From contig NC_092672.1 of assembly GCF_964355755.1 (NCBI RefSeq), positions 7,136,441-7,200,440 of the forward strand: DNA of 64,000 nt, written 5' to 3'. The notes beneath the pieces were generated by a model, which was not told where the DNA came from, ran no database searches, and saw nothing but the letters and a program-made list of their open reading frames with translations. Made by a program: the position numbers and the translations under genes. The stretch is from Antedon mediterranea (taxonomy: Eukaryota > Animalia > Echinodermata). Positions 4,137 to 36,632 of this stretch are shown here, piece by piece (the stretch's first letter is position 1; every line of letters starts with the position of its first letter).

Positions 4137-5549
4137 TATTTATTCTTTCCTTAGCACTATTTTGTCCGTGCATTATCTTGGCATCAGTTTCATCTAGCTA
4201 AGTCAAGTTTTCAGAGTATATTCCTTATGGCCAGGAATCGATGTGGTTATATTTTCACGATGCGTAATCAAAAATTACGCGGTCTACGCGCGATTTTACG
4301 AAATCACGTTTGTAATCATATCTTCACAAGCATGAATCACAATTAAACAAAATTTGGTACTCATAAATTTCAGGTCATATTTCATCATATGGCAATTAAA
4401 TTACGTGCGTAGCGCATATAACGCTTGCGTACGCGCGCTTAAAATGTTCAAAATTGTCAAAATTTATTTTCGATGAAATTAGAGTACGTTTCAGGCAATT
4501 TTAAGCGTTTAAAAAATTGCCATGAGTGCGCAGATTTTTGCACGCGCACTGCGCGTTAAACGTTAATGCGCACTCTTTTTGCCCGATTTCTGTTTTACAA
4601 TCTTTCTTTAATAATATCATCATATTTGATTCAGGTTTCAACTCGAAATTGCGTTATACGAGCACGTCAAAAGTGACTGGCTACGCACGTATAAGTTAAC
4701 AAAATGGTGAAAATATGCTAAATTTTAAAATTAATATATATCGTCAGAATGCAGGGGAACACCTATTTTTTATTTCATTTTCTTGAAGTGTATGTATCAT
4801 ATGTATGATTTATTATCAAATTAAGAGAACAAAAGTTGATTAAGTCATCATTAATTGCATATTAAATTAAAAAAACATAATTTCGACAATCAAACAAATT
4901 ATGACATTTTCTTAGGCCAAAATAACAAACTTAACATTAACTTTCTTCCTTCAAAAATTCATATATTAAAGTTAAAAGTATGTAGTTTGACAGTGCATCA
5001 TTTGTATACATTTTAAAGATGTCATCATAGTAAAAAATTATAATTCATTTCAGTATGTAATAATCTATTTGCATCAAAGTGGTTACTGCATAGTAAATAC
5101 ACGGAGGAATTTTTCTACAACTTTTAGTCAGTTGTGTACGGCTCGGTGGTCTGTGCTCGTGTCTATGGCATTCAAGGTACCGAGATCGAGTCTCACCTTG
5201 GGAAACGAAATAAGATTTTTTTTTTATTATCCGTATTGTTTGTTCAAATTTATTTCTTAGTGTATAGATTATACACATGATTTATAATGAAATCTAGATA
5301 AAAATTTACTTATGTCTTTATTATTATGTAACAACAAATGTGGTTTATGACATTATACGCATATGGATCTTTGATCGGATTGTGATACCGGCTATGGTGT
5401 TCGCGTTAGCAAGGTCCTATCATATATTATAAATAATTAAAGATTCTGAGAAAATCAATCAATCAATATATCTTTTAAAAATCAATTATCTTTATTTAAA
5501 TCAATGCATATAACCTATAATTCGTCATAGTGACGAATTAAATCTAGTT
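4137..5549 (+). repeat. Unit U3 (R2 family, 1413 bp)
   Basis: Starts tatttattctttccttagcac, ends cataacctataattcgtcatagtgacgaattaaatCTAGTT. Confidence 0.7.
5122..5230 (+). repeat. tRNA-derived Pol III-like module with T-run in U3
   Basis: tagtcagttgtgtacggctcggtgg (A-box-like) ... ggtaccgagatcgagtctcacc (B-box-like) ... gggaaacgaaataagaTTTTTTTTTTT. Confidence 0.45.
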
Positions 5550-6971: not shown

Positions 6972-8392
6972 TCTTTATTTATTCTTTCCTTAGCACTATT
7001 TTGTCCGTGAATTATCTTGATATCAGTTTCATCTATCTAAGTCAATTTTTCAGAGTATATTCCTTATGGCCAGGAATCGATGTGGTTATGTTTTCAGGGT
7101 GCGCAATCAAACATTACGCGGTCTACGCGCGATTTAACGAAATCACGTTTGTAATCATATCTTCACAAGCATGAATCACTTTTAAACAAAATTTGGTACT
7201 CATAAATTTCAGGTCATATTTCATCATATGGCAATACAATTACGTGCGTAGCGCATATAATGCATGCGTACGCGCGCTTAGAATGTTGAAAATTGTCAGA
7301 ATTTATTTTCGATGAAATTAGAATACGTTTCAGGCAATTTTAAGCGTTTAAAAAATTGCCATGAGTGCGCAGATTTTTGCACGTGCACTGCGCGTCAAAC
7401 GTTAATGCGCACTGTTTTTGTCCGATTACTGTTGTATAACCTTTCTTTAATAATATCATCATATTTTATTCACTTTTCAATGCGAAACAGCGTTATACGA
7501 GCACGTCAAAAGTGACAGGCTACGCACGTGTAAGTTAACAAAATGGTGAAAATATGCTAAATTTTAAAATTAATATATATCGTTAGAATGCTCGGGAACA
7601 CCTATTTTTTATTTAATTTTCTTGAAGTGTATGTATCATATGTATGATTTCTTATCAAATAAAGAGAACAAAAGTTGATTAAGTCATCATTAATTGCATA
7701 TTAAATTAAAAAAAAATAATTTCGACAATCAAACAAATTATGACATTCTCTTAGGCCAAAATAACAAACTTAACATTAACTTTCTTCCTTCAAAAATTCA
7801 TATATTAAAGTTAAAAGTATGTAGTTTGACAGTCCATCATTTGTATACATTTTAAAGATGTCATCATAGTAAAAAATTATAATTCATTTCGGTATGTAAT
7901 AATCTATTTGCATCAAACTGGTTACTGCATAGTAAATACACGGAGGAATTTTTCTACAACTTTTAGTCAGTTGTGTACGGCTCGGTGGTCTGTGCTCGTG
8001 TCTATGGCATTCAAGGTACCGAGATCGAGTCTCACCTTGGGAAACGAAATACGAATTTTTTTTTTTATTATCCGTATTGTTTGTTCAAATTTATTTCTTA
8101 GTGTATAGATTATACACATGATTTATAATGAAATCTAGATAAAAATTAACTTATGTCTTTATTTTATTATGTAACAACAAATGTGGTTTATGACATTATA
8201 CGCATATGGATCTTTGATCGGATTGTGATACCGGCTATGGTGTTCGCGTTAGCAAGGTCCTATCATATATTATAAATAATTAAAGATTCTGAGAAAATCA
8301 ATCAATCAATATATCTTTTAAAAATCAATTATCTTTATTTAAATCAAGGCATATAACCTATAATTCGTCATAGTGACGAATTAAATCTAGTT
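6972..8392 (+). repeat. Unit U5 (R2 family, 1421 bp)
   Basis: Same structure, terminal palindrome + CTAGTT at 8387-8392. Confidence 0.7.
7962..8067 (+). repeat. tRNA-derived Pol III-like module with T-run in U5
   Basis: Same module. Confidence 0.45.
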
Positions 8393-14432: not shown

Positions 14433-17117
14433 TGGATATTGAAATACTACTTTCGTTTCAAAATCTTAGTGGTCTTTCAAAGAATATTTATTGTATTTTT
14501 ATACTTTTATTTTCGAATAGAATATGTAGGCCTAGTACGCCACTAACTCGAGGAAGTAACTGCAGGTAATTATCTTTCATTTCAATATTCCCCCATATTA
14601 TTTTTCTACAAAAAAATGTTTCCAAAAATGTTGCTTAGTTTTTTTGAAGTCTTGGAAAGCAGTAGAACACCTGTAGATTGAGGAGAAACTTACAGCATGT
14701 AGCATTGGTACAAAGTCAGTGCCGTGGTACTCCAGATAATAATCCTATGGAGAGAGGTGCTGTGTGTGTGGTTTGAGGATTTGCCTTTCCCTCTTTTCAA
14801 ACTAGATTTCAGCAGTAAAAATGCATGACTCCTCATGACAAACCAACCATGTAAAACCCTACGGGCTTGGACTTAACAATCAGATTATTATAGGTGGGTC
14901 ATGGTTTGAGGGAGGGTATTTTTTTTTTAATTCAAATTTGCTTTAAAACATTTCAGGCACACGTGCACATGTTATGAATGTTGAAAGTAACTAAAACAGT
15001 CGCGCTTTTCAATCGTGAAACACGTCACGTTTGTGTTCACCTCATTTCGAAAGAAACCCCTTAAATAAAAATTACCAAATTGTTAATAAACATTCGGTCT
15101 AAACATGATGCAAAAAAATAAGTAAGTAAGCCGTAATCACATTTCTTAATAAATTGCAGCAATGAATCCCAAAAGCAGACCATATTAACTGAAAGCGGAA
15201 ATTTAACTGTATTTTACGTCGTTATTATAATATGCTGAATAACCATGGGTAAAAAGCATGTACAGTACATTATATAAGCATGTATGATGTTTAACAATTT
15301 ATACACAATCTCACATAATATCTTCCCTTCTATTGTCCCATAGGCATAACTCATATTGTACAAGATAAGTCTATTAAATCCAAAAGTATGTACATACAAT
15401 TTATACTCCATTATGAGTCACTCGATAATTACTTAATGAAATATTTACCGCGAAACCTATTACAATAGTGTTCAATATTTCTTTATTAGGAAGATATAAT
15501 GGACGATTTAAAAACGAAATGTAGGGTTTCATCGGCGGTAAAGTTAGTTCCGGGTTCACGGTGAGTCATCACCTTGCAACTTCACGTGTTCAACTAAGTT
15601 GGCCGTTGGTGGCGATAGCCATTATAGTTGTTTGTTTATTTTCGGACCGCGTTTGAAAGTACATTAGTTAGCAAAATAAAAATTATACTGCAAATTAATA
15701 AAGATCAAATTAAATATATTCATAAAGTATCGGACTATATTGTGGAGAATAATATAAAAAAATACAAAAACAAATTAAATCGGGAGTACTGATGATAAGA
15801 CTTTTTGTTTGAAATCGAGTGAAACCCACTGTTGAGTAAGCTGGCAGGACTGTATAACTATGCGCTACCTGTGTCCCGTTAGGACCCTCTGAAACGTCTC
15901 CCTTCTTAGGACAAATCGCCCCACTGTGTCGCTGAAGTTAGTTTCAAAAGATGTTTAAACTAAATAATGTATTAATTATACTAAGTGGATGGTATTTATT
16001 TGAATAAACTATACGTTAAATTGTTATTAATCTAAGACACTGTGAAACATTGACAACATCAAGCATTTCAATAATGGTAACCGACCGAAAACGTCCAAGC
16101 CAAGACTTCCTTCTAAAACCTTTTTACCCGAGTCATTATCAGTCCGAGAACCATCGTCTACACTTCCATCAAAGTTAAGTTATAGCATGAAGCAATGGTT
16201 ATTCATTCATTCACTATTATTGCCATAAATAAACGACAAGAAAAAAAAACAGATAACACCAACTTATAAAATGGCGATATGAGGTTATTGGGTTGATAAA
16301 ACTGATTCTGTGTCTTTATTATAGGCCTATGGTAATTTATTTTGGTTTGTTGTAATTTATCAAAATCTCTTCTTAATTCGGTTCCTAACCGATTAACAAC
16401 CAATAATGCTTGTAATAATTTATAATTATTAATCAGAAATTGATTACTGTGTACATGCATACGTTCAAAATTAATGAAATTAACACTTCACTGCATTATA
16501 TCACAACTTATGAAATAATGTTTACAATAGCATTTTTGTTTGCGGTGTGTCAAGACCGGAATTCAGGTTTTATTTTCTGTGTGTGCTGAGAATTGAAATC
16601 AGAGGGAGTAATGTCTACTCTGATCATCGATTCTGCAGCTGTCATTTGATAAGCTTAACTGACTATCGCAAGTCATCTAGTCACTAGTATGGTGTATTAC
16701 GTAATTTTAATACATGTTATATGTTTGATGGACGGCCATTGTCTTATAATATCCAAGCGCAAAGACCATATTATTCTAAAATAAACTTATTCTGAATAGC
16801 TACATATTACGATAAAGTTACTTGTTTCTCCACAGAACTGTAATGGCAGCTTACCGTCACGCTATAAAGTTGATTATGCTGTTTACAACTATAACCTCAA
16901 GTGCTAGCAATGGTTCGTGTGTTATTTCTATACCTTTTTCAAAAGAGATCCTATACATCATCATCATCATCAAGTAGCATAATTGTGAAACCTTGATGGA
17001 TTATTTGTAATATACCCTGCTTACTACATTCATTCTTTCTTTGAGATCCAAGAAACATTTATTATATATGGCCTTTGGCCCAAATAATATACAATGTAAT
17101 ACAATATTAAATAAATA

Positions 17118-17831
17118 TCAGTTGAGTGCGTTTAAAAATTCTGTTCTACGTTTAAATGAAAAAAATAAATATTTTCCAAGTTTAACAATAAGATCAGAAT
17201 TTGTGGCAGACATAAGATAAATATATTTTAATTTAGTTGGGTTGTTTGTATAAAAGGAAAACATATATTTAGTTCTAATATCTGAATAAAATGGACAAAC
17301 TAAAGTGAAATGATATTCATCTTCAATTGATTGTAAAGCACATAATTTGCATAATCTTTCATTTCTATTTATACAATTCCATCTTCCTTTTTCAATTTCT
17401 AATTCTAAAATTCCTAGTCGTATCTTAGTCATAATTTGTCTATGTTTGTAATTTGTTACTTTTGTTAGATATTCTTCAATTCCAAACTTATATTTAATGT
17501 GCTTGTAATATTGGAGCTTAGAGTGTAGCCTAGTATCTTCGTAGAATTTCTTTCGTTCAATGTCTGTAAGCCTTTGTTTAAAATTTGAAATAAAAGTATA
17601 TATATTATTAACCTGTTGTGAGTACCATATGTTACCAAATCCATTTATGCATAGTATTTGTTTTACGTCATTGGCCCAACATTGCTCATTTCTTTGAGCT
17701 TTTCTATATTGAAAATCATAACATTGTTTAATAAATTTGTCATTATCCATTTGGATTACTCTTAGCCAATAACGAATTATATTAATGATAATTTGAATTT
17801 GGATAGTGAATCTTCCACATTCTCCTCTCAC
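17118..17831 (-). pseudogene. LINE ORF2 C-terminal fragment with CCHC motif
   Basis: ...GILELEIEKGRW...CKLCALQSIEDEYHFTLVCPFY (CX2CX10HX5C). Confidence 0.55.
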
Positions 17832-17849
17832 TGCAACACTTGGTGCAGA

Positions 17850-18645
17850 ATTACCTATAATAATAATAATAATAAATGAAAACTTATATAGCGCCGGTAT
17901 CCTCCACCCATGTGGCGCTCATGGCGCTTTGTGCATTAACAACGTGCGAGAACATCAGCGAATAGCGACGTCTTTAGGTTGGTCTTGAAACTGTTTAGAC
18001 TAGTTGAGCATTTAACTGTTGCTGGTAAGCTGTTCCATACACTTGCGGCCGCAACGTAAAAAGATCTCTGACCCCACTGATTTTTCGCTCTACGCTCTTG
18101 AAGAAGGTTTTGTGACAATGATCGTAGGCCTCTGCGGGATGATTCGTAACGATCCACAAGGTCAGATAAATAAGCAGGAGCACTGTCATTTAGGATCTTG
18201 AATACAAACAACGCAAGTTTGTACTTAATACGTTGTTGAACAGGCAACCAATGCAAATCCATCAGGACAGGAGTTATGTGAGCGTTTGATTTTGTATAAG
18301 TTACAATTCTAGCTGCCATATTTTGCAAGCGCTGCAAACGTTGTATTTGAGATTTTGGTATGCCAAACAACAAGGCATTACCAATGTCAATTTTAGAAGT
18401 GACAAATGAGTGTACAATCAATTCAGCTGTTTTCTTGTTAAGATTACCGCGAATACGACCAAGGTTCCTAATCGATATGCATGCTGCTTTGGATACAGTT
18501 GTTATTTGTGCTTCCATAGTGAGATTACTATCCAGCATGATTCCCGGATTCCGGACCACCGATGAGGGAGCGATGTTAGAGTTTCCGATTCTGATATGTG
18601 TGATGTTGATTTTGGAGATGTTACATTTAGACCCGACGATAATAA
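17850..18645 (-). mobile_element. Nested 5'-truncated CR1/L2-clade LINE 3' fragment with (ATT)n tail, inserted inside the L1-like element
   Basis: ORF 17936..18559(-) carries the CR1/L2 C-terminal signature (...LQRLQNMAARIVT...HITPVLMDLHWLPV...RIKYKLALFVFK...APAYLSDL...RGLRS...RSFYVAAASVWNSLP...FKTNLKTSLF); plus strand shows (aat)n aaatgaaaacttatatagcgcc at 17855-17890, i.e. the element tail. Confidence 0.6.
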
Positions 18646-19334
18646 ATTCCTAGAATGTATTTACAGAATCTTAGATGAACTTTCTCTAATACTGATATAT
18701 CATTTAAACCCCATATTTCGCTACCATAAAGTAAGATTGGCATAATCTTAACATCAAATATATGGTTCCATATATTAACTTGGAGGTTACCAAAACGCCT
18801 ATGGGTCAATCCTTTTAATGTGAACAAAGCCTTATTAGCTTGTTGACAATTGTATTTTTTGGCTTTATTCCAATTACCATTTGAGTTGAAAACAACTCCT
18901 AAATATTTAAAGGATTTGACAATGTCAACTGTATTTCCATTGTAATTCCATTTTTCAAATTTGTTAAGATTACCACCATTCTTAAACACCATAATATTAC
19001 TCTTGTTAACATTGACAGTTACATCCCATCTTGTACAATAGGTAGATAACTTGTTTAAATAATATTGTAGACCATAAACGGTATCACCAAATAACATAAG
19101 GTCATCTGCATAGAGTAAATGATTAATTTTTAGATTTCCTATTTGGATTCTATGCTCGTCGCCTTCCTCATTTAATGTTTCACTCAAATCATTAATAAAA
19201 ACATTAAATAAAAAGGACAAGAGTGGCGAACCCTGTTGTATACCTATTAGACATTTGAAAGAATTACTAATGTTGCCGTCGACCTTAACATGTGCTGATA
19301 ACTTATTGTACATTGAATTAATAACGTTTAACAT
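18627..19334 (-). pseudogene. LINE ORF2 RT core fragment (domains 4-7, YADD)
   Basis: GIQQGSPLSFLFN ... LLYADDLMLFG ... KYLGVVF ... LLYGSEIWG. Confidence 0.65.
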
Positions 19335-19384
19335 TTTTCCTTTTACTCCTGAATTTTTTAGTTTTATGTGAAGATATTGATGTC

Positions 19385-21301
19385 CTACGGAGTCAAAGGC
19401 TCGTTTAAAATCAATGAAAGCAACAAATACTTTCCCACGTTTTTTCCTAGGTATTTATTAATGATTGTGTTAAGAATAAATACATTTTCCGATGTTCTGA
19501 ACCCCTTTCTAAAACCGGCTTGTTCCTGATGTAGAATGTTATTATCTTCTGCCCAAAATTGTAATCTTTTATTAATAATATGTAAGAAAATTTTAGCAAA
19601 AACAGGAATAAGTGATATTCCTCTATAATTCTCTGGTTGTTCTTTGTCACCTTTTTTAAATATTGGGACAATAAGACTGGTTGCCCATTGCTGTGGAAAC
19701 TGTCCTGTATTATAAATTATATTATATAATTTTGTTATTAGATTGATTACATTTTGAGATGAGTGTATAAAAAGTTCTGGTAATAATCCATCGATTCCAG
19801 GTGATTTACCTGTTTTTTGGGATTTAATGGCATGAATTACCTCATCTACTGTAATGTCATTATTTAGGTTAGGTTCGTTTTCATTTACAGCAGGTTCATC
19901 ATTAATGATACTTTCTACATTTTGATTATCTCTATTTTCATTATTATGAAATAAGGATTCGAAGTGAGTGCGCCATGTATTAATACATATGTTACTTGGA
20001 AAATTTGGTTTTGTTTGTTTTAGTTTAATCCAGAATGATTTGGAGTTTTTTTCTCCTAATGATCTAATCAATTCTGTACGTGATCTTTTAATATAGCTGT
20101 ATTTCTTATTTTTTATTAATGTTTTATATTCTTTTTTTATTTCCAGGTATGCATTAAGCAATGTTTGTGTACGATTGTGTCGGAATCTATTTAAACTTCT
20201 TCGAACTTTGTTTTTAAGTGCAAGACATTGATTGTCATACCACGTGTCTTTAGCTTTAGTTGTTTTATTGTTGGATTTCCTATGGATAATTCCTTTACAT
20301 GCATATTCATACAATCTACCTACAGTTGAAACAGCTTCATCAATTAGGTTATCATTAATCAAGTTAGTTATTTCATTTTTAAGTTCATCGATTTTATTAT
20401 GCTGTAATCTTAATTTAAATGTTTCAGTATATGTTTCTGACCAATTGAATTTAGTTTGTTTGGGACAATTTTCAATATTTAATTTTTTTATTTTTATATT
20501 ATCTTTAGTTAGTAGGCCTAATTGAAACGTAATTGGCATATGATCAGATTCTATTCTATTTTCTACTTTCAAATCTGCTATGTACCTGAAGTTATCAGCT
20601 TTTGTCAATATATAATCGACTACGCTTTTGCCTTGTTGTCCTATGAAAGTGTAGCTTTTACTATACATTGGGTTAATTCTGCCAGTAGCAATTCTTACAT
20701 TCGTTTCTTTACAAAAATTGAGAAGATCTATGCCATAATTATTCGTGACGTCATCTTCATTAATTCTAATTGTTACATTATCTTCATCATCTTCAATATA
20801 TAATTCGTTATCCCAATCTATTGGGCATACATCGTTGTTGACATAATCCAATAAATCTCCTGTTTTACCATTGAAGTCTCCAACAATGAATATTTGATTT
20901 TTATTATTATATTTATATAAATATTCAGCGTATTCGTTTGTAAGTATTTCATATAAATTGTTATTATTAGCATATGGGGAGTGTTGTGGTGGTCTGTAAA
21001 CTACAGCCATTATTATAGAATCGTTCTCCGTTTTGATTCGTAACCACATAATATACTTAGATAAGCTAGGTAATTCTTTAACTTTGATATTAGTTTTATA
21101 ATATATCATAATTCCACCTGTATTTCTACCACGGTGTTGTAACTTTTCTTGCATTTTACTTATACAATTATATCCCTTAATATAGTAGTCATCACTAAAA
21201 GTTGTCCAAGTTTCAACCAAACATATTACATCGAAATCACAAATAAATTTTATAAATTCACAATCACTAAAATTACTTTTTAAACCATTTATATTCCACA
21301 C
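19385..21301 (-). pseudogene. LINE ORF2 N-terminal part: APE-type endonuclease + RT fingers/palm
   Basis: MWNINGLKS... (APE EN), ...FIVGDFNGKTG..., RT motifs ...PGIDGL...; interrupted downstream. Confidence 0.65.
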
Positions 21302-21610
21302 AATAGTCTTTAAAGAGGTGGACGTGTAAATACTTTTACTTATATTTTTATTTGTAACATTGGTATATATATTGTTATTATTGACGTTGTTATTCCTATT
21401 ATTAACGTCGGCGTTTATGTTATCGTTATCTATACCATTAGTTTGACCATTATTAGTTGTATTGTCAATATTTTCTTTTTCATGATTTTCGTTATTATTC
21501 TCACCTTTATTATTATTATTATTGTCATTTACGTCATTATCAACAATTGTACCAATAATATTATTACATTTGTTGTTTATTTGATATGTGTTTGGGCCAT
21601 GGCCGGACCC

Positions 21611-22267
21611 CTATCTAGGTTTATATCTACTATACTTAACTACTTTATCATTATCTATATCATATGTAAAAGTTTCGTCATCAATAATGAGTTTATCGTA
21701 TCTTATTTTGAACGGTTTTCCGCTTTTAATAGCTTCATCTATTTTTGGTTGTAAATTTTTTCTGATCTTACGAACTCTTGCTGTGTAATCTTCGCTGATA
21801 GTAATTTGTTTCCTTCTTTCACCCCGGTCTTCATTTTTGTTCATTTTTCGACGTTGTGTTCTACTTGCTTTTAGAACATTTTCTTTAGTTTTGTAATCTT
21901 TGAATTTCACAATGATCGGTCTCGGTTTAAATCTTGCGTTGAGCCTATGTGCCCTCTCAATCTCAATATTCTCCCCACCAATACCGAGATCATTTGTAAA
22001 GTGTTCTTTTACTTTCTTCTCACTCTGATCCCAATTCTCATGTTCGCTATCTACCACTCCATATACTATTAAGTTGTTACGTCTGCTTTGACCTTCAATT
22101 TTGTCTATATGTTTGATTAATTGTAAGTTCATTGTTTTAAGTTGTTGATTTTCTTCTTCTATTATTGTCATTCTTTCGTTTAGTGAGTCCATGTTGCTAT
22201 TTAGTGTATCAATTTTTTCTTTTACGCTTTTAACATCTCCTGAAATGTCATCCATTTTCTTATTCAA
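21611..22267 (-). CDS. LINE ORF1 (coiled-coil + L1 ORF1/Transposase_22-like RRM region)
   Basis: ...RRNNLIVYGV...IEIERAHRL...RPIIVKFKDYKTKENVLKASR matches L1 ORF1p core pattern. Confidence 0.65.
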   Translation of the reverse strand: MNKKMDDISGDVKSVKEKIDTLNSNMDSLNERMTIIEEENQQLKTMNLQLIKHIDKIEGQSRRNNLIVYGVVDSEHENWDQSEKKVKEHFTNDLGIGGENIEIERAHRLNARFKPRPIIVKFKDYKTKENVLKASRTQRRKMNKNEDRGERRKQITISEDYTARVRKIRKNLQPKIDEAIKSGKPFKIRYDKLIIDDETFTYDIDNDKVVKYSRYKPR

Positions 22268-22409
22268 ATTTCGTGTTCATTGTTTGTAGTTGTATTAATA
22301 TATTTTGTATTGAAGGTTCATTTCCTCCCGCATTCAGCGCAACTTGTGTTGTTGCGTCTTCCGTTGTGGGTTTACCAGTAAGTTCATCCAATGTAGCTTG
22401 TCTAGTGTA

Positions 22410-22457
22410 AACTGGACCTGGATTGCTTTCGATATCGCCGGCCAAAAAAAGTAACAA
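22410..22457 (-). other. 2A-like ribosome-skipping peptide motif (LLFLAGDIESNPGP) at the N-terminus of the LINE ORF1 region
   Basis: ORF 22260..22457(-) begins MLLFLAGDIESNPGPV = D(V/I)ExNPGP 2A consensus; different frame from ORF1, so frameshifted in this copy. Confidence 0.55.
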
Positions 22458-23395
22458 GCATAACGCAGATAGTCGTAGTGTAGGCCTAGTTCTAATGACT
22501 GCACCTAAAGAACCATGACATTTTATGCGCTTTTGTTTATTTCGTTTTCCTCTCCAATATAGTCCTATTCTTAACCGGTAATTATCAATGTCAATCCTAT
22601 TGATGTAGGAGTTTAAGTGTGATTAGACGTGTAGTTATGTAAGCCAGTGCGTGCTATGTTGAGGTATTGTAGAACCAGAAGCAACTGGTTTCGGTAATGT
22701 GACGTGGCGTTTTTTGATCAAGTCCGGTCATGTGACTTGAAAATTCCGTTGAAGGGCGATATTTATACTGAAGTTATAGATTAAGTTAATGTAACGAAAA
22801 TTTATAAAGTGAAATTGATATAACTTGTGGTATTTACTATTGAGTTATTACAATAAACCAAACAAAAGCAACTTATCTTGGTTTGACAGGCCTATGTCGT
22901 GGGCCTGCCGCTTAACAGCTGCTCTGGAATGTCGCCATGAGTTATGTTAATCCAACAAGTAAAAAAATCAGTTCCAATCGGTGTTTAAAAATCCCGCCGC
23001 TTAATTGCGGCTTACACAGGTAGTTTACAGTAGCTGTATATAACGTTAAATGTAGTTTCCGATGAGAAGGCTGTATAAAAAACGGTTGTCGTAGGCCTAG
23101 CATATTGATACTAGTGTACAGCGGAAAACATCGGGGTGTCGTGTTGAGATAGTATGAATAGACCGGGCTAGGGAGCACCGAACAAACACGTCTTCACTCG
23201 ACCGCACTCACTCACGTAGCCTACTACGTTAATTGTTATAATTCAGTGAAAGTTAGACAGATTTATGTGATAGACCTAAGTTCTTCGTCTTCTTCTTCTT
23301 TTCTTCTTCATGATTTAACAGTCCACTACAGGATATCGCTCCTCCAAATCTCTCCATTTACTTTTCTCTTTTGCTATTCTGAACCAGTTGTTTTC

Positions 23396-23725: not shown

Positions 23726-24317
23726 ATGCAAGGCTCTTCGGTTTATTTCAGATTCAACCTTGTATCCCGATCCAACTTTGTACCCAGATTCAACCTCGTA
23801 TCCAGATACAACCTTATATCCAGTTTCAACTTCATATCCACATTCGACCTTTTATCCAGATACAACCTCATATCAAGATTCAATCTCATATCCAGATACA
23901 ACATCATATCCAGATACAACCTCGTATCCAGATACAACCTCAAATCAACATTCAACATCATATCTAGATACAACCTCGTATTCAAATTCAATCTCAAAGC
24001 CAGATTCAACCTCATATCTAGATTCAATCTCACATCTAGATACAACCTCGTATCCAGATTCAACCTCGTATCCAGATACAACCTTATATCCAGATACAAC
24101 CTCATATCAAGATCCAATATCATATCCAGATACAACATCATATCCAGATACAACCTCATATCCAGATACAACCTCAAATCCTCATACAACTTCATATCCA
24201 GATTCAATCTCATATCTAGATACAACTTGGTATCCAGATTCAAACTCATATCCAGATTCACCCTGGTATCTAGATCCAAGCTCATATTCAATATTTTCTT
24301 CAGAATATTATTACTCT
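23726..24317. repeat. 18-bp minisatellite (~33 copies, consensus tatccagatacaacctca)
   Basis: Direct reading; unit is a multiple of 3 and lacks stops, so all six frames appear open (ORFs 23726..24379, 23760..24398, 23743..24291 are repeat artefacts). Confidence 0.9.

Positions 24318-24361
<44 letters not shown>
24318..24361. repeat. (TAC)n microsatellite (~14 copies)
   Basis: tactactactac... directly after the minisatellite. Confidence 0.9.
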
Positions 24362-24869: not shown

Positions 24870-25118
24870 GTAAGTTAACAGGGAGCTTCGATTTGTTACG
24901 ACCAACCTAGGCCAGGTCAACCGATGTGTCGGCGGTCCCTCGCCTGAACACAGAAACCGTCAAATCTGTGTCGAGGTGGAGATCGCGGACACACGTCCAA
25001 ATAATTTCCTCATGGTCGCCGGTCGTTTAAAAGCGAAAGCTTCTAATATTAAATTGTAATTTCAAAAAATCATGCATGTACCACTTTGAAGCTCAACTTG
25101 TTTACCCCTTTTTTAAAG

Positions 25119-25409
25119 TGACAATTCGACTTGTTGGTGGTGATAATCTGAATGAAGGGCGTGTAGAGTTTAATTATTTTGGTGAGTTTTCAACAATAAG
25201 GGATCTACATATCAGCGAAGCCGACGTCATTTGTCGTTCGCTTCCCTTTCCTTCTGCTGAGTTCTCGGATTGCTGTGGAATATATGGTACTGCCTTTGAC
25301 CTGCCTTCTTATCAAGTCGAATGTAAAGGAAATGAGAAAGAATTATCTGACTGTTCGATATATACTACCTATGATATTGACCAACAATCTGGGATTAGAT
25401 GTTCAACTG
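25119..25409 (+). CDS. Mosaic receptor exon (SRCR domain 2); phase 1/1
   Basis: Acceptor ccccttttttaaAG; VTIRLVGGDNLNEGRVEFNYFGEF...GIRCSTG; donor G|GTAAGA; ORF 25076..25474. Confidence 0.8.
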
Positions 25410-25785
25410 GTAAGAATATGCAATGCAATATTGTTTGCCAAAAGGTATCTGATGAGTTTAGAATTTCTTTATAACATTTCTATCTATTTCTTTCTATATT
25501 AACATTTGTACTAAATTTAACCTGCACTGATTATGTCAATGATAATAAATGTATGACAATTATTATACATTAAATAGTATTTTCTTAAAACAATTTAGTG
25601 TACTTAAAAGTCTTATTTCACAATATATTATTATAACACCAGCTCCTCAATTTTAGATGTTTTCTTTTAAAGAAACATGTACTAGGCCTACATCTTGTAA
25701 ATGTATTAAAGGGCGGAGAGAAGATTCTGGGTGGGTATTTTAATTATTAATTTATCTTTTAATAGTGGTTATGATATTTCCTCAG

Positions 25786-26079
25786 ATGGCGTAAGATTAA
25801 CTGGACAGTTTGAATCAGATGGACCACTTGAAATCTTTACAAGCTCTGCTTGGCATAAAGTATGTTCGGTTGATTTTAACATTGAAGTTGGCGAAGTAAT
25901 CTGCAGTCAACTCAACTTTGATGGTGTTTTAAATGTCACTGACATTGACAGTGACAACGGAACAACAACCATACGAGAAATTAATTGCACAGGAATGGAG
26001 AGAAAATTTGAAGAATGCTCTTTCAATATTGTGCCTGAACAAATGTGCACAAGTTTTGTGAAGCTGTCATGCATTGGAA
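25786..26079 (+). CDS. Mosaic receptor exon (SRCR domain 3); phase 1/1
   Basis: Acceptor atttcctcAG; DGVRLTGQFESDGPLEIFTSSAWHKVCS...VKLSCIG; donor A|GTAAGC; ORF 25731..26114. Confidence 0.8.
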
Positions 26080-26679
26080 GTAAGCAAATACAGTACTTAA
26101 ATATACATTATTAAGCAGGGACAAATTCTTGATATACAAACATTAACTTTCCCTAAGTTGTTATATATTATCTTTTTATATTAATCCACACGTCGACGTT
26201 TCGAATTTGTCTGAAAAATTTCGAGCTCAGGTATTATAAGTATGAAACGCCATGTGTGCCAAAATATTTATGTTTTACCAATATTATATTCAGCCTATAA
26301 CCAAGACATTTGACATTAGAACGTCTTCTTTGGGACACTCTATTTAGATAAACACCTTTACAGAAAACATCCTTTTCAGAGGAAACCTCTTTTCATGGAC
26401 ATTTAGGCCTCCGGGTAAAACGAGGGGCAAACATTGTATATTAATACTGTTGACAGACTCTCAGTTGAATCTCTAAAGTTTCCCTTTAATATGTGTCCAT
26501 TGTTGTAAACATAAGATATTCTTCATCCAGCTACGAAATTTATAGTAAAAAATGACTGACCTTTAATCAACAAAATATTGTTTTCTTGACAGAAAAAAAT
26601 GTTTTAATAATGACATACTGCAGCTAATAATCGTAAGCCATTTGTCTATATTAATTTGTATTTATAATAATATTTACAG

Positions 26680-26958
26680 GTGGATCAAGATTTGCTGATG
26701 GGTATACTAGGAATTCAGGGTATGCGCAGGCATACATTAATAGCGAATGGAATTATATTTGCGACAGTGAAAGAAGAGTTACTGAATTTATCTGCTTACA
26801 AGAGCAATCAACTGGTGTTCACTTAGTACGAAACCAATACCCATTCTACATTTCTGACGAATACGCTGATTGTGACATCACACCCGAAAACAGTCTACAG
26901 TGTAGTCAAAGCTTGGTTGATTGTTTTCCTTATCTTATTTATACGGAATGCTCAACGG
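26680..26958 (+). CDS. Mosaic receptor exon (degenerate SRCR-like domain 4); phase 1/1
   Basis: Acceptor taatatttacAG; SGSRFADGYTRNSGYAQAYINSEWNYICDSERRVTEFICLQEQSTGVHLVRNQYPF...YTECSTG, no stops; donor G|GTATGT. Confidence 0.65.
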
Positions 26959-27505
26959 GTATGTAATTTTTGTTTTATATGCCATCCCTGAGTTCAAATC
27001 CTTCATCTAATTTAAGCCTAATTAACCCTTCATAAAATGCATGTTGAATTCAATAAATGGTAGGTCTATAGGTCTAAATCTGTGTTAAGTGTTAATTAAT
27101 CGCTTCTAAAAGAGTTGTTTCTGACGGTACTTAATGCTTGGATAAATATTTTGCAATAACTGCTTTAAAATCAGAACGTCCATCCATACTATTTGTCATG
27201 TCATCCGCATTATTACTATGATGTCCGTCAGTTATAAGCCTCTGATGACAAATGCAAATAACGATCGACAATCATCTAAATTCATCCATTCTTTATCTAC
27301 AACACATCTTCTTCACAATAGTATAACATACACTGGTCTCCAGTACCATGAACCCCGAATACCAATTCCACGTTCTTGGTATTTATGCCGTTTGTTCATT
27401 ACGTCATTCTATTAACTAGTCAAGCATAGCGGGGAGTAACTAGTGCCATCATTTTGTTTTAAAGATGAGCTTATGAGATAATACTGTACCGCAATTTATA
27501 TTTAG

Positions 27506-27799
27506 ATGTTGTACGAATCAAGGGAGGAGGTCATCGTGGATTTGTTCAAATCTTCAAAGATGGCAAATGGAATTATATTTGCAGTGAAAACTGGAATGTT
27601 CAGACTACTGAGCTTGCTTGTAAAGAACTCAACTTTCGCTCCACTTCTACAGTGACTGGTGTTGGTGTAAACACAACCGCCGTAGTACCCGATGCTCAGA
27701 TCATTATGTGTGATGGAAGTGAATCGAGTTTGCTGAATTGTCAATTTGATACCAACATGCAATGTAAACGTCATGCTGTACAAGTCACGTGTTCTGACG
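27506..27799 (+). CDS. Mosaic receptor exon (SRCR domain 5); phase 1/1
   Basis: Acceptor aatttatatttAG; DVVRIKGGGHRGFVQIFKDGKWNYICSENW...VQVTCSD; donor G|GTGATA; frame anchored by ORF 27652..27861. Confidence 0.75.
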
Positions 27800-28016
27800 G
27801 TGATAATTTGTGCTTTTTTGCTACACTACTATTGTCCTATTATTGTATTATTTTTGTATAAATTAATTAAATTTGTCTAGACCTATCTATACTTACTTTT
27901 TCACTGCCACATTCGTGATTTTATGATAGGAGTATTGGGTATTTAGCAAGAATAGGATTACCTGTAGTAACTAGTGCTGATAAGTAGCGACATCTTTCTT
28001 TTATCTTACTCTACAG

Positions 28017-28328
28017 TTGGTATACGTCTTAGAGGATCGCCAGTAAAGCATGCTGGTCGTGTGGAAATATACAACAACAACCAGTGGTGGACGGTTTGCG
28101 ATGATTATTGGGATACCAATGACGCGAACGTGGCATGCATTATGGCGGGTTATTCTGGAGCTACCAGAGGGTATCGTGAGGCAGCGTTTGGTGAAGGGGT
28201 TGGTCCTATTTTGCGCTATGATTTTTTTTGTGACGGTGATGAAGACGACTTATTTGATTGCCCATTTGGTACACATTCCGATGGATTCTGTTCACATTAC
28301 GAAGATGCAGGAGTGATTTGTTCTACAG
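28017..28328 (+). CDS. Mosaic receptor exon (SRCR domain 6); phase 1/1
   Basis: Acceptor ttttatcttactctacAG; VGIRLRGSPVKHAGRVEIYNNNQWWTVCDDYWDTNDANVAC...CSHYEDAGVICST; donor G|GTACGT; ORF 27974..28378. Confidence 0.85.
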
Positions 28329-28717
28329 GTACGTTTCAGATCTTTGTATATGTGTACCAAAATAATCCAAAGGCATAACACCATAAAGGAGTATAACTGG
28401 GTTTACATGCAAAATTCACACATTTTTATACTTTTTATACAATAAAAAAAACACTACAAGACCTTGAGATTTAGTGTTCAGATTCAAATTCATACACATT
28501 AATTAGGTTATTTGACAATAACTAGGGCCCGCACTAGAAGCAATAGCTTGTATCATGAGGGCCCCTACAAAATAAATATAAATATGCAAAATAAATAAAA
28601 AGAAACATCCCGTCTTAATGTCTGCCCTTTCATGTTATCGTCGCGTAATTGATGTTATTGTGCCGTGATTGTAATTTGTACGATTAATTAAAATGAATGT
28701 CTTGTTCCTTGTAACAG

Positions 28718-29020
28718 ATATAATTCGTCTTTCTGATGGAAGCCCATCTGCCGGTCGGGTTGAACTATTTATCAATGGCCAATGGGGAACGATTTGTGAC
28801 GATAACTGGGACATAAATGATGCCATTGTTATTTGCCGACAATTAGGGTTTGACAGAGCTGCTAACGCATACGACATGGCTAGATTTGGTCCTGGCAAAG
28901 GTCCAATACATTTTGATGAAGTTCAGTGTGCGGGAAGCGAAACCGATATCTTACTGTGTAACACTAAAAGTATTCATGATTGTGAACATTCTGAAGACGC
29001 AGCGGTGTCCTGTGTTTCTG
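28718..29020 (+). CDS. Mosaic receptor exon (SRCR domain 7); phase 1/1
   Basis: Acceptor cttgttccttgtaacAG; DIIRLSDGSPSAGRVELFINGQWGTICDDNWDINDAIVICRQLGF...CEHSEDAAVSCVS; donor G|GTAAAT; ORF 28693..29031. Confidence 0.85.
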
Positions 29021-29951
29021 GTAAATATTGAACAAAATATATAAGTTTGAGTTTTTTTTTCACAGTAGATTTTCCGTCAGATGTTACACACAGTTGTTTA
29101 TCTTTTTCATCTAGTCAGACGAATATGTGGTGAATATTAATTTACAACATTTTGTTGTTCCATATTTTTTTTTGGACCAATTAGTTTGTGGCGAGTTAAA
29201 CTGTGGCCGAGTTTACTTGGGGTCGAGTTATGTATGGTAGATAAGATAGATGATTAAATATCAAATACCTATCATCAATACGTTAGGCAATAAGGAGTAT
29301 CTAAACATTAAATTGAAGCTCCCTTAATAAATCAACATTATTTTCATTGTAAGCTGTACTCTTTTCCTATTTAGACTCATTTGTGACTCCGTCATGGTTG
29401 AAACCATTTAACAGTATTCTGACAAAGGGTAAGTTACCATAAGATCAGTAATAACAAAGTAAATGTTATATTAATGAACAATGGACAGAGAATAAGAAGT
29501 ATTATTCTCATCTGATATATACTATAATAAAAAAGAAACGAAAATGAATAAGAATGCAAGCAAAATCATAATTTATCGAATAAGATAGTAAGATTGAAAT
29601 GAAAAGATAATATCAAGAGTAATGAAACATAAAAGAGAGAAAATTATTACATTTGAGTTTTAATTTAACAAAATAAAAATAACCCTTTACTAGCAGTAAT
29701 GATAGCTTCGATAGAAGCTCTAAGATGATAGACAATACAATTGTTATTTCTAAGAGCTATAGTGTATAAACGGAGTATTTTTAATCGAACGTTTCGATCT
29801 TTATTTTATATCTTTATCAACTCACTGCTTGTTGAATCCAATAGATTCAGGATCGGTTAAAAAATAAAATTATTGTTAATTTAAATGAAGCGAATCAGCA
29901 AATCACCCGTCGTAAACATTGAATTTTCAACAAAGTGTTCAATTTTTGCAG

Positions 29952-35563: not shown

Positions 35564-36632
35564 AATATCTGATGATTATTCATTTTGCTGTTTGTTGGAA
35601 GATGTTGGTTTTAACGACGTTGACTGTACGCCAGATGCAGACGTGTTTTCATCATGTGACAATCTTATGCAGAATGTGTACCTTAGAGCTTTCTTATGGT
35701 TGTTTGGACTGAGTGCACTTCTTGGAAACAGTTTTGTAATCTTATGGCGATGGATAAATTGGCCTGCAAAGAAAAGTCCATCTTACACACAATCGTTTCT
35801 AATTACTAATCTTGCAGTTGCCGATATGCTTATGGGGTTGTATATGTTGATCATTGCCAGTGCCGATTCCTACTATCGGGAAGATTACGTCACACATGAT
35901 AGCGAATGGAAGGCCAGTCGAATATGTACGCTTGCAGGAATCTTAGCCTTTCTATCCAGTGAATCGTCTGTGTACACTTTAACCGTCATTAGCTGCGACA
36001 GGTTTTTGCACATTGCATTTCCATTTCGCCGTTTTCATCTTACACAAGAAACAGTAAAATTTGCAGTGGCTGTAGGATGGTTTCTGACCCTCTTCACGAG
36101 TATTCTTCCAGCATTACCAATCCCGTACTTTAACAATGAGTATTACGGTGTCACCAGCGTGTGTCTTGCATTGCCATTAACGTCGGAAAAAGTGAGAGGT
36201 TGGGAATATACCGCTGCGATTTTTATAGGTTTTAATTCGTTATGCTTCTTGCTAATTTTTGTTTGTTATTCAGGTGTGTTCATTTTAATAAAGATATCGA
36301 GTAGTAAAGTAAATCAAGCAGGAAACATGAATTCTGACAAGAATAAGCACATTGCAATTGCTATACGAATGGCTGTTATTGTCGCTACTGACTTCTGCTG
36401 CTGGGTACCCATCATAATAATGGGTATTTTATCATTGACAACATCTGTTAACATACCCGCCACGGTATATGCCTGGGCTGCAGTCTTCATTTTGCCAATA
36501 AATTCAGCAATTAACCCATACTTATATACAATAGCATCTTTAAAGAAACTTCAAAGGCAACTAAAACCTTCTAAACATGTATCAGAAAGTATGCCAGCTA
36601 CGGAAAGAATAAATGTGAAAATTGGTACGTAA
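35564..36632 (+). CDS. Mosaic receptor large exon: LRR C-terminal cap + rhodopsin-type 7TM (LGR-like), to stop TAA (or alternative donor at 36624/36625)
   Basis: Acceptor agttttttcatttcAG; ISDDYSFCCLLEDVGFNDVDCTPDADVFSSCDNL then 7 hydrophobic helices; CDRFLHIAF (DRY-like) after TM3; NPYLY in TM7; ORF 35592..36632. Confidence 0.85.

Follow-up and report, generated by a model that had tools for sequence, protein, structure and literature searches.

A probable StopGo/2A relic at the head of ORF1 in a dead LINE with L1-type architecture from the crinoid Antedon mediterranea

The window analysed here is a stretch of 64,000 nucleotides from the crinoid Antedon mediterranea (NCBI RefSeq assembly GCF_964355755.1, contig NC_092672.1, positions 7,136,441 to 7,200,440 of the forward strand), with a GC content of 32.6%. 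On its minus strand, from ~22.6 kb to ~17.0 kb, lies an element that reads as a long interspersed nuclear element (LINE) with L1-type architecture, and the peptide GDIESNPGP stands ahead of the body of its first open reading frame (ORF1). This peptide is, with high confidence, a StopGo/2A peptide of the ORF1 of that LINE. The motif is real, is not a chance match, forms part of ORF1 and is in frame with it in intact relatives. Skipping at this site, and a purpose for it, would follow by analogy with established 2A peptides. The copy in the window is dead and cannot perform skipping, having lost the ORF1 ATG, the ORF1 frame and the ORF2 ATG and carrying a frameshift and an insertion in ORF2, and its motif appears to be a relic of a 2A rather than a working one.

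The codons at 22439-22413 of the minus strand (GGC GAT ATC GAA AGC AAT CCA GGT CCA) were translated directly into GDIESNPGP. An earlier sequence-only reading of this DNA had placed a 2A-type D(V/I)ExNPGP motif in the open reading frame (ORF) immediately 5' of ORF1, and this identification was borne out. The core octapeptide DIESNPGP (22436-22413, minus strand), with G just before it, falls into the canonical D(V/I)ExNPGP class, and it is the sole NPGP and the sole D[VI]ExNPGP across the six frames of the window. According to the six-frame amino-acid frequencies of the window itself, 1.3e-5 occurrences of D[VI]ExNPGP are expected per window, and the full motif appeared in none of 300 first-order Markov simulations. 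The ORF that carries the motif (22260..22457, minus strand, 65 aa) was listed as (M)LLFLAGDIESNPGPVYTRQ...TKFE*, also written (M)LLFLAGDIESNPGPVYTRQATLDE...TKFE*, and its stop TAA occupies 22262-22260. The frame is open from 22622 (minus strand) without any ATG. The 'M' at 22457 is a TTG codon rendered as Met by ORF convention, so the start at MLLF in the sequence-only reading has to be abandoned; the real start, now mutated to AGG, is found 46 codons farther upstream. The frameshift relative to ORF1 given in the same reading is real, for the frame of the 2A ORF differs from that of the downstream coiled-coil/RRM ORF (21611..22267) and closes at the stop just given, but the ATG assigned to 22267 is TTG as well, and the first ATG of the downstream ORF is at 22255-22253. 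Lacking an ATG in its 2A frame and meeting a stop 51 codons past NPGP, the window copy does not hold the 2A within a single ORF. The features around the motif are as follows.

22413..22439, minus strand: 2A/StopGo core G-D-I-E-S-N-P-G-P (direct translation, rarity and conservation among homologues).
22418-22416 (Gly codon) and 22415-22413 (Pro codon), minus strand: codons between which the skip is predicted.
22440..22481, minus strand: Leu-rich hydrophobic stretch TLRLSALCLLLFLA, directly upstream of the core (translation).
22416..22598, minus strand: whole leader, which spans 61 codons, opens with the mutated start and closes with the Gly of NPG, comprising the N-terminal motif (N-motif), basic stretch, hydrophobic helix and 2A (alignments).
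22554..22598, minus strand: N-motif of the leader, (R)IDIDNYRLRIGLYW, whose first codon AGG (22598-22596) stands at the ATG position of the relatives (alignment with L001).
22272..22415, minus strand: post-2A linker PVYTRQATLDE...LQTMNT, the would-be N-terminus of the released ORF1 protein (ORF1p) (alignment).

Relatives of the element were sought with a protein query made by conceptually joining the 2A frame to ORF1. The closest relative, P0001 on metagenome contig L001, was 67% identical to the window, and it had one frame running from an ATG, MIDIANYRLRIGLYWRGKRSKHK...LLFLAGDIEINPGPAHTRQTTLDE...NLNKKMDDISGDVK, through the 2A into the coiled coil. Both ORFs were open in a Logan locus (L005; ORF1 of 446 aa and ORF2 of 1137 aa), in a ~5.2 kb element found on at least four contigs of the TARA metagenomes (L006/L007; ORF1 of 346 aa and ORF2 of 1165 aa) and in a LINE of the same type from JGI (L014); the same layout with some lesions was seen in L002, L004 and L008. 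Each related locus (L002, L004-L008 and L014) contained a single NPGP, which was always in the ORF1 leader, and in the relatives with open frames the 2A was located ~57 residues from the ORF1 start, ahead of the coiled coil. The sequence-only reading had called for a search for the 2A in frame in intact copies, and this is the arrangement that was observed: in P0001, L005, L006, L007 and L014 a single ORF encloses the 2A, with one product upstream of it and another downstream. Moreover, the whole 120-codon frame of the window aligned with the intact ORF1 N-termini of the relatives. The JGI metagenomes were scanned for closer copies by means of the repaired ORF1; of the 80 matches to the pattern, tblastn confirmed none, and no second copy of the LINE family was present within the 64 kb window.

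The first, word-indexed search found NPGP upstream of the coiled coil in 27 of 67 ORF1 homologues. A profile search of 1.84 billion cluster representatives then returned 31,883 matches at E<=1e-3 (1,087 at E<=1e-30). Among its best 150 matches, a list enriched for leaders because the search profile contained the leader, NPGP was present in 115 of 142 further proteins, typically at residue 52-61. Intact copies lacking NPGP had been named in the sequence-only reading as the outcome that would speak against the motif; this outcome did not come about, and in total NPGP was found in 142 of the 209 ORF1 homologues. The core variants were DVE (64), DIE (41), GVE/GIE (20), CVE/CIE (6) and NVE (4), and they coincided with the functional (D/G/C/N)(V/I)ExNPGP set that PMC12846837 defined for viruses. 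The few proteins that had the leader without NPGP carried decayed forms of it (NPVP, NPSP and NPEP).

Across seven loci, the conserved residues were encoded by differing synonymous codons (N by AAT/AAC; P by CCA/CCG/CCC/CCT; G by GGT/GGA/GGC; R by CGG/AGA/CGA), and an origin of the leader conservation in RNA- or DNA-level constraint was rejected on this ground. The nine GDIExNPGP codons of the window and L001 differed by three synonymous changes and by one non-synonymous change at the free x position. The Nei-Gojobori dN/dS values against L001 were 0.11 for the leader, 0.12 for the 2A region, 0.47 for the post-2A linker and 0.07 for the coiled coil plus RRM, and they are rough values because the proportion of synonymous differences (pS) between the window and L001 was high (0.4-0.65). 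The value of the linker indicates that constraint was weaker there. From these comparisons, the leader and the 2A appear to be under purifying selection at the protein level.

That the copy is decayed, as the sequence-only reading had proposed, was confirmed by five lesions. The DNA alignment of the window with L001 showed that the ORF1 ATG had changed to AGG at 22598-22596. An extra A in the run at 22271-22269 causes the 2A frame to run into its stop, and deletion of one A from this run restored a continuous ORF1 of 328 aa. ORF2 has ATT in place of its conserved Met codon, giving IVWN in the window versus MSWN in L006. In addition, a three-frame translation placed a frameshift in ORF2 near 19430, with ...FIDFKRAFDSV read in another frame, and ORF2 is split by a nested insertion. 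The insertion contains a 207-aa ORF (17936-18559) with no Pfam match, which may resemble the C-terminal part of ORF2 proteins of the CR1/L2/RTE type; the insertion ends in a (TAT)n tract (17857-17875).

22269..22271, minus strand: frameshift lesion, an AAA run with one A more than L001 (DNA alignment, ACGAAATTTGAA versus GTG-AATTTAAA).
17844..18635, minus strand: nested insertion of ~790 bp that splits ORF2 and represents the 3' portion of another LINE-like element (gap from ~18645 to ~17849 in every ORF2 tblastn alignment).

The sequence-only reading had also assigned the 2A to the ORF1 of an L1-like LINE, and the layout of the relatives, the ORF1 fold and the ORF2 architecture all agree with this assignment. 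By L1-like we refer to the fold of ORF1 and the architecture of ORF2, as distinct from reverse transcriptase (RT) phylogeny. The ORF at 21611-22267 encodes a 60-residue helix followed by an alpha/beta domain. Pfam Transposase_22 matched the single ORF1 sequence weakly (E=0.0012; 19.6 bits versus a curated cutoff of 22.4), and the profile of the ORF1 homologues matched human L1 ORF1p (2ykp) with E=8e-17. The AlphaFold2 (AF2) model of the ORF1 body had a pLDDT of 93, and its best Foldseek matches were the 2yko/2ykp structures of the L1 ORF1p trimer (TM 0.65-0.71, E=6e-9). The ORF2 family profile was collinear with human L1 ORF2p over residues 12-776, that is, the endonuclease, tower and RT (E=5e-75), a match that leaves room for other APE clades because the LINE RTs in the PDB are those of L1 and R2 alone. 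The Cys-His motif of ORF2 (CKLC...H....C, the CCHC of ORF2, in the ORF at 17118-17831) was common to L002, L003, L005 and L008. The remaining parts of the element were assigned as listed below.

21611..22267, minus strand: ORF1 body with coiled coil, RRM and C-terminal domain (CTD) of the L1 ORF1p type (Type II), open to its stop.
19418..21304, minus strand: ORF2 part 1, with APE endonuclease, linker and RT start (Pfam Exo_endo_phos and RVT_1; tblastn with the L002, L005 and L006 ORF2s).
18636..19445, minus strand: ORF2 part 2, RT core in another frame (Pfam RVT_1, E=1.3e-14; tblastn frame change).
17118..17843, minus strand: ORF2 part 3, with the C-terminal domain, the Cys-His motif CKLCALQSIEDEYHFTLVC and the ORF2 stop (tblastn, ORF translation).
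16956..17117, minus strand: putative 3' untranslated region (UTR) ending in a (GAT)5-6 microsatellite, of uncertain boundary (sequence, TRF).

No poly(A) tail was found downstream of the ORF2 stop, where the (GAT)5-6 tract lies ~145 nt past the stop instead, and no direct repeat of at least 10 bp that could be a target-site duplication flanked the element; both absences carry low weight because the copy is old. As a separate observation on ORF2, a related LINE from a contig of TARA (L003:895-4002) encodes two APE domains in tandem in its ORF2, at residues ~94-403 and ~468-760, both of which align to the APE of the window.

The window peptide was compared with the 2A of FMDV (the virus of foot-and-mouth disease), whose sequence (F2A) is LLNFDLLKLAGDVESNPGP: the window sequence SALCLLLFLAGDIESNPGP is identical to it at 13 of 19 positions, and the shared residues include L6, L7, L9, A10, G11, D12, E14, S15 and NPGP. 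The numbering agrees with that of PMC12846837, in which L7A and L9A lowered the activity of FMDV 2A and D12A and N16A abolished it. Upstream of the core, LCLLLFLAG resembles the LLLLSG-like class of the same study, a likeness of sequence that does not predict activity, since some canonical motifs elsewhere were inactive. The best 15-residue Kyte-Doolittle mean of the hydrophobic stretch was 1.94 in the window, and the family median was 2.46. For the leader region, AF2 predicted a helix at residues 39-53 with low confidence (pLDDT 60), and the model was used for this pre-2A helix alone. Furthermore, activity in vitro has been recorded for 2A-like peptides of non-long-terminal-repeat (non-LTR) elements, both of the sea urchin and of other invertebrates (PMC3708506).

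In functional relatives, ORF1 would be ordered as a ~57-residue leader ending in G(D/G)(V/I)ExNPG, then Pro, the linker, the coiled coil, RRM and CTD. If established 2As are a guide (PMC12846837), the nascent 2A in the exit tunnel would distort the peptidyl-transferase centre at NPG/P, and the Gly-Pro bond would not be formed. The leader of ~57 residues, ending in ...NPG, would be freed as a separate small peptide, and some of the ribosomes would resume translation and produce an ORF1p that starts with Pro. The 2A may in this way detach the leader from ORF1p and also set the amount of ORF1p made per initiation event, and indirectly that of the ORF2 protein (ORF2p).

Several points weigh against this reading of the peptide. 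The intact relatives are elements from other organisms that are 27-67% identical to the window copy, not copies from the source genome; the 5' and 3' ends of the element are undefined, with neither target-site duplication nor poly(A); and the dN/dS values are rough, as stated above. Skipping by the window peptide or by the family members is predicted from sequence, and weak activity or none was seen in vitro for several 2A-like sequences of non-LTR elements in which the motif is largely conserved (PMC3708506). Moreover, a bioRxiv preprint of July 2026 (PMC13405545) classed 70% of the tested ORF1p-associated 2A-like peptides as reducing protein abundance. This last class is the starting point of another reading, which we regard as unlikely: the conserved peptide would mainly not be a clean skipper and would act as an attenuator, with stalling or drop-off lowering ORF1p and ORF2p, or, on failed skipping, the hydrophobic leader would serve as a signal or anchor and target ORF1p to two places (membrane/secretory versus cytosolic). 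The preprint ties the reduced-abundance class to a Leu-rich upstream sequence, and LCLLLFLAG of the window is Leu-rich. The basic stretch followed by a hydrophobic stretch of 12-15 residues (median 2.46) resembles the n- and h-regions of a signal peptide, and the N-terminal 2A-like sequences of sea-urchin NOD-like receptors (NLRs) are signal sequences as well as recoding elements (PMC4981915). However, the hydrophobic stretch starts ~35-40 residues into the protein, a position seldom expected of a cleavable signal peptide, it is hard to see what an RNA-binding ORF1p would gain from the secretory pathway, and the residues critical for StopGo in FMDV 2A are all present. Attenuation or signalling is also compatible with a StopGo/2A peptide and does not exclude it.

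The two readings that deny the motif to ORF1 are far less probable. A chance D(V/I)ExNPGP match in a non-coding 5'UTR of the LINE would be in keeping with the window copy, which lacks an ATG in the 2A frame and reads that frame differently from ORF1, but it is hardly credible in view of the expected number of occurrences given above, the 120-codon alignment with the ORF1 N-termini of the relatives, the dN/dS of ~0.1 and the recurrence of the motif at the same place in 142 of 209 homologues. An origin of the 2A in a fragment of an endogenous RNA virus (picorna-like or dicistro-like) adjoining the LINE might be considered because RNA viruses are the most familiar source of 2As and the core closely resembles that of FMDV. 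This origin is extremely improbable, however: both flanks are LINE ORF1 (the upstream flank is the leader, the downstream flank the linker and coiled coil) and are collinear with the relatives; no viral domain was found in the Pfam search; and the leader-plus-2A DNA pattern (W-R-x-R-I-G ... E-x-N-P-G-P) had no match in 2.9 million viral contigs in two scans, versus six true transposon-type instances in one scan of JGI metagenome contigs.

The StopGo/2A peptide of ORF1 was also compared with known systems. The statement of the sequence-only reading that 2As had been reported in LINE ORF1s holds in part: the 2013 literature puts them in ORF2, and it is the 2026 preprint that reports ORF1p cases. 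Odon et al. (2013; PMC3708506; see also Luke et al., 2013, PMC3894237) described 2A-like sequences 40-80 aa from the ORF2 N-terminus in Rex1, CR1, L2, L2A, Crack and Ingi elements, most of which lack ORF1, and argued that the 2A may compensate for the loss of ORF1. The sole ORF1 case of that study, L2A-1_NVe, has an E>S change and is inactive (PMC3708506). The element of the window is similar to these elements in having GD(V/I)ExNPGP 40-80 aa into the first long ORF, and many of them come from S. purpuratus and several are active in vitro. It differs in that a canonical 2A occurs in ORF1 of a two-ORF element with L1-type proteins; the arrangement of Odon et al. (2A in the ORF2 N-terminus, usually without ORF1) was not found in the window, where the single NPGP is in the ORF1 leader and ORF2 opens directly with the APE domain. 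The preprint (PMC13405545) reports nine clusters of 2A-like peptides before the coiled coil of L1-ORF1p-like proteins, from one limpet and five ticks. The likeness is close, with an N-terminal 2A followed by coiled coil, RRM and CTD and a predicted fold like 2ykp, and tick proteins of this kind were among the ORF1 homologues found here (P0022-P0038). The present case differs in being an echinoderm (crinoid) and a dead copy. The text of the preprint as searched here mentions neither a conserved N-motif nor a fixed length of ~57 aa for the leader and does not use the term 'leader'.

Other 2As are more distant. The F2A of FMDV separates large domains of an RNA-virus polyprotein, whereas the present 2A closes the short leader at the N-terminus of a retrotransposon protein. 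The 2A-like signals of sea-urchin NLRs (Roulston et al., 2016, PMC4981915) share an N-terminal Leu-rich hydrophobic peptide that ends in a 2A, an echinoderm host and a leader that is either released or left attached. They belong to host immune genes, however, and their leader is essentially a signal sequence plus 2A; here an N-motif and a basic stretch (~35 residues) come first and the cargo is that of a transposon. The 2A of the trypanosome L1Tc/Ingi elements (Heras et al., 2006, as cited in PMC3708506) is functional and lies near the N-terminus of a non-LTR ORF, with a proposed down-regulation of the downstream protein, but those elements, which belong to the Ingi clade, have a single ORF, carry the 2A before the APE domain and have protist hosts.

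The leader upstream of the 2A was then characterised from 64 leaders, each from a distinct 50%-identity cluster. The consensus was MGIDIeqWRaRIG.F..p.k...(basic, median net charge +6)...lrl.l....LLllcGDVE.NPGP, and the window leader has a net charge of +8 over residues 9-35. The N-motif has the general form M(G)(I/V)D(I/L)xx(W/Y)RxRIGxF, with R and G conserved in 100% and I in 94% of the leaders, and lies 45-54 residues ahead of NPGP. The leader length was 54-63 aa in 55 of the 64 cluster representatives. The ribosome exit tunnel is generally taken to hold ~30-40 residues, and 18-30 residues matter for 2A activity. The N-motif lies beyond both spans, so its conservation is left unexplained by the 2A. 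Pfam and NCBIfam searches with the leaders gave no matches, and a literature search for the leader motif as text gave irrelevant matches only. N-myristoylation of the MG start was considered and dropped, as Gly is at position 2 in about half of the leaders and many begin MI....

Two further sequence features were noted near the leader. A short motif, T(R/K)Q(A/T/K)TL, is shared shortly past NPGP by the window (22272-22415), P0001, P0004, P0006, P0007, P0009, P0015 and P0017, and also occurs at the extreme N-terminus of P0016, a homologue without 2A (MKKSTRQQTLSS). The word AAT(A)TGGCGG(A/T)C, which resembles a YY1 site, was found in the ~70 nt upstream of the leader ATG in L002 (~4650-4700), L004 (~7010-7078) and L005 (~75-143); in L004 and L005 it lies inside an in-frame upstream extension, and it was not seen as such 5' of the element in the window. 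The human L1 5'UTR contains a YY1 site.

The instances of the leader-plus-2A pattern in the JGI contigs included proteins other than LINE ORF1p. In L016:535-7050 (JGI contig Ga0224511_10016046), the leader MGVDINSWRARIGLFSQPRK...LLIVCGDIEENPGP opens a 2197-aa frame of Helentron type in which Pfam recognised Herpes_teg_N (OTU-like), DUF6570, Helitron_like_N, PIF1 helicase and a C-terminal Exo_endo_phos_2 (APE) domain; the related L011 is opened likewise. In L009:3456-6011 (JGI contig Ga0194135_10007943), the leader-2A MGVSVEQWRASIGLF...IIGGVELNPGP opens a Cys/His-rich protein. Proteins of this type are 852 to 956 aa long, with intact 956-aa copies on other contigs (P0349 and P0350), had no Pfam or PDB match and probably belong to another mobile element. 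A hidden Markov model (HMM) built from LINE ORF1 leaders only gave 83 bits for the leader of L016 and 57 bits for that of L009, and leaders shuffled with the pattern-forced residues held fixed scored 12 +/- 6 bits (maximum 30.5). Helitrons were not found mentioned together with 2A-like sequences or ribosomal skipping in the literature searched. This handful of metagenome contigs suggests a portable leader-2A cassette common to transposon classes. It is possible, and put forward tentatively, that the conserved ~57-residue leader is a micro-protein released on its own, or else a module for co-translational regulation, and that it serves as a portable N-terminal cassette of different transposable element classes. 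That the leader is more than upstream context is argued by its fixed length and by the N-motif, which lies beyond the exit tunnel and yet is constrained like the RRM. Its portability is argued by the homologous leaders at the head of the L1-type ORF1p, the Helentron-type Rep/helicase protein (L016) and the multicopy 956-aa Cys/His-rich protein (L009, P0349).

Other features of the window lie 5' of the LINE. A long tandem array with 18/36/54-bp periods (~10-30 copies, ~80% matches) followed by (TAC)14 occupies 23749-24360, ~1.1 kb 5' of the LINE leader. Exon-like ORFs with one SRCR domain each (PF00530, E 1e-10 to 5e-29) were found at 25076-29031 on the plus strand and probably belong to one multi-SRCR gene. 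A single-exon rhodopsin-family G protein-coupled receptor with seven transmembrane segments lies at 35592-36632 on the plus strand; it is GRL101-like, being 72% identical to a protein of Anneissia japonica, 71% to one of Antedon mediterranea and at most 50% to the counterparts in other echinoderms.

The present case is a further, dead, echinoderm instance of the recently reported class of 2A-headed L1-ORF1p-like proteins, and the arrangement itself is already known from other invertebrates. The value of the finding in itself is modest: it adds a crinoid-like echinoderm example and indicates that such 2As leave recognisable relics in dead copies. It bears on the wider theme of how LINEs set the ratio of ORF1p to ORF2p and restrain themselves, and a StopGo at the ORF1 start of two-ORF elements does not fit the 2013 idea of a 2A that replaces a lost ORF1. 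The conserved and possibly modular leader is the part most worth following up. If it were a functional product or a regulatory module of LINEs and Helentrons, it would be a previously unnoticed transposon-encoded peptide, and a shared leader module would naturally supply compact 2A cassettes whose upstream context is defined.

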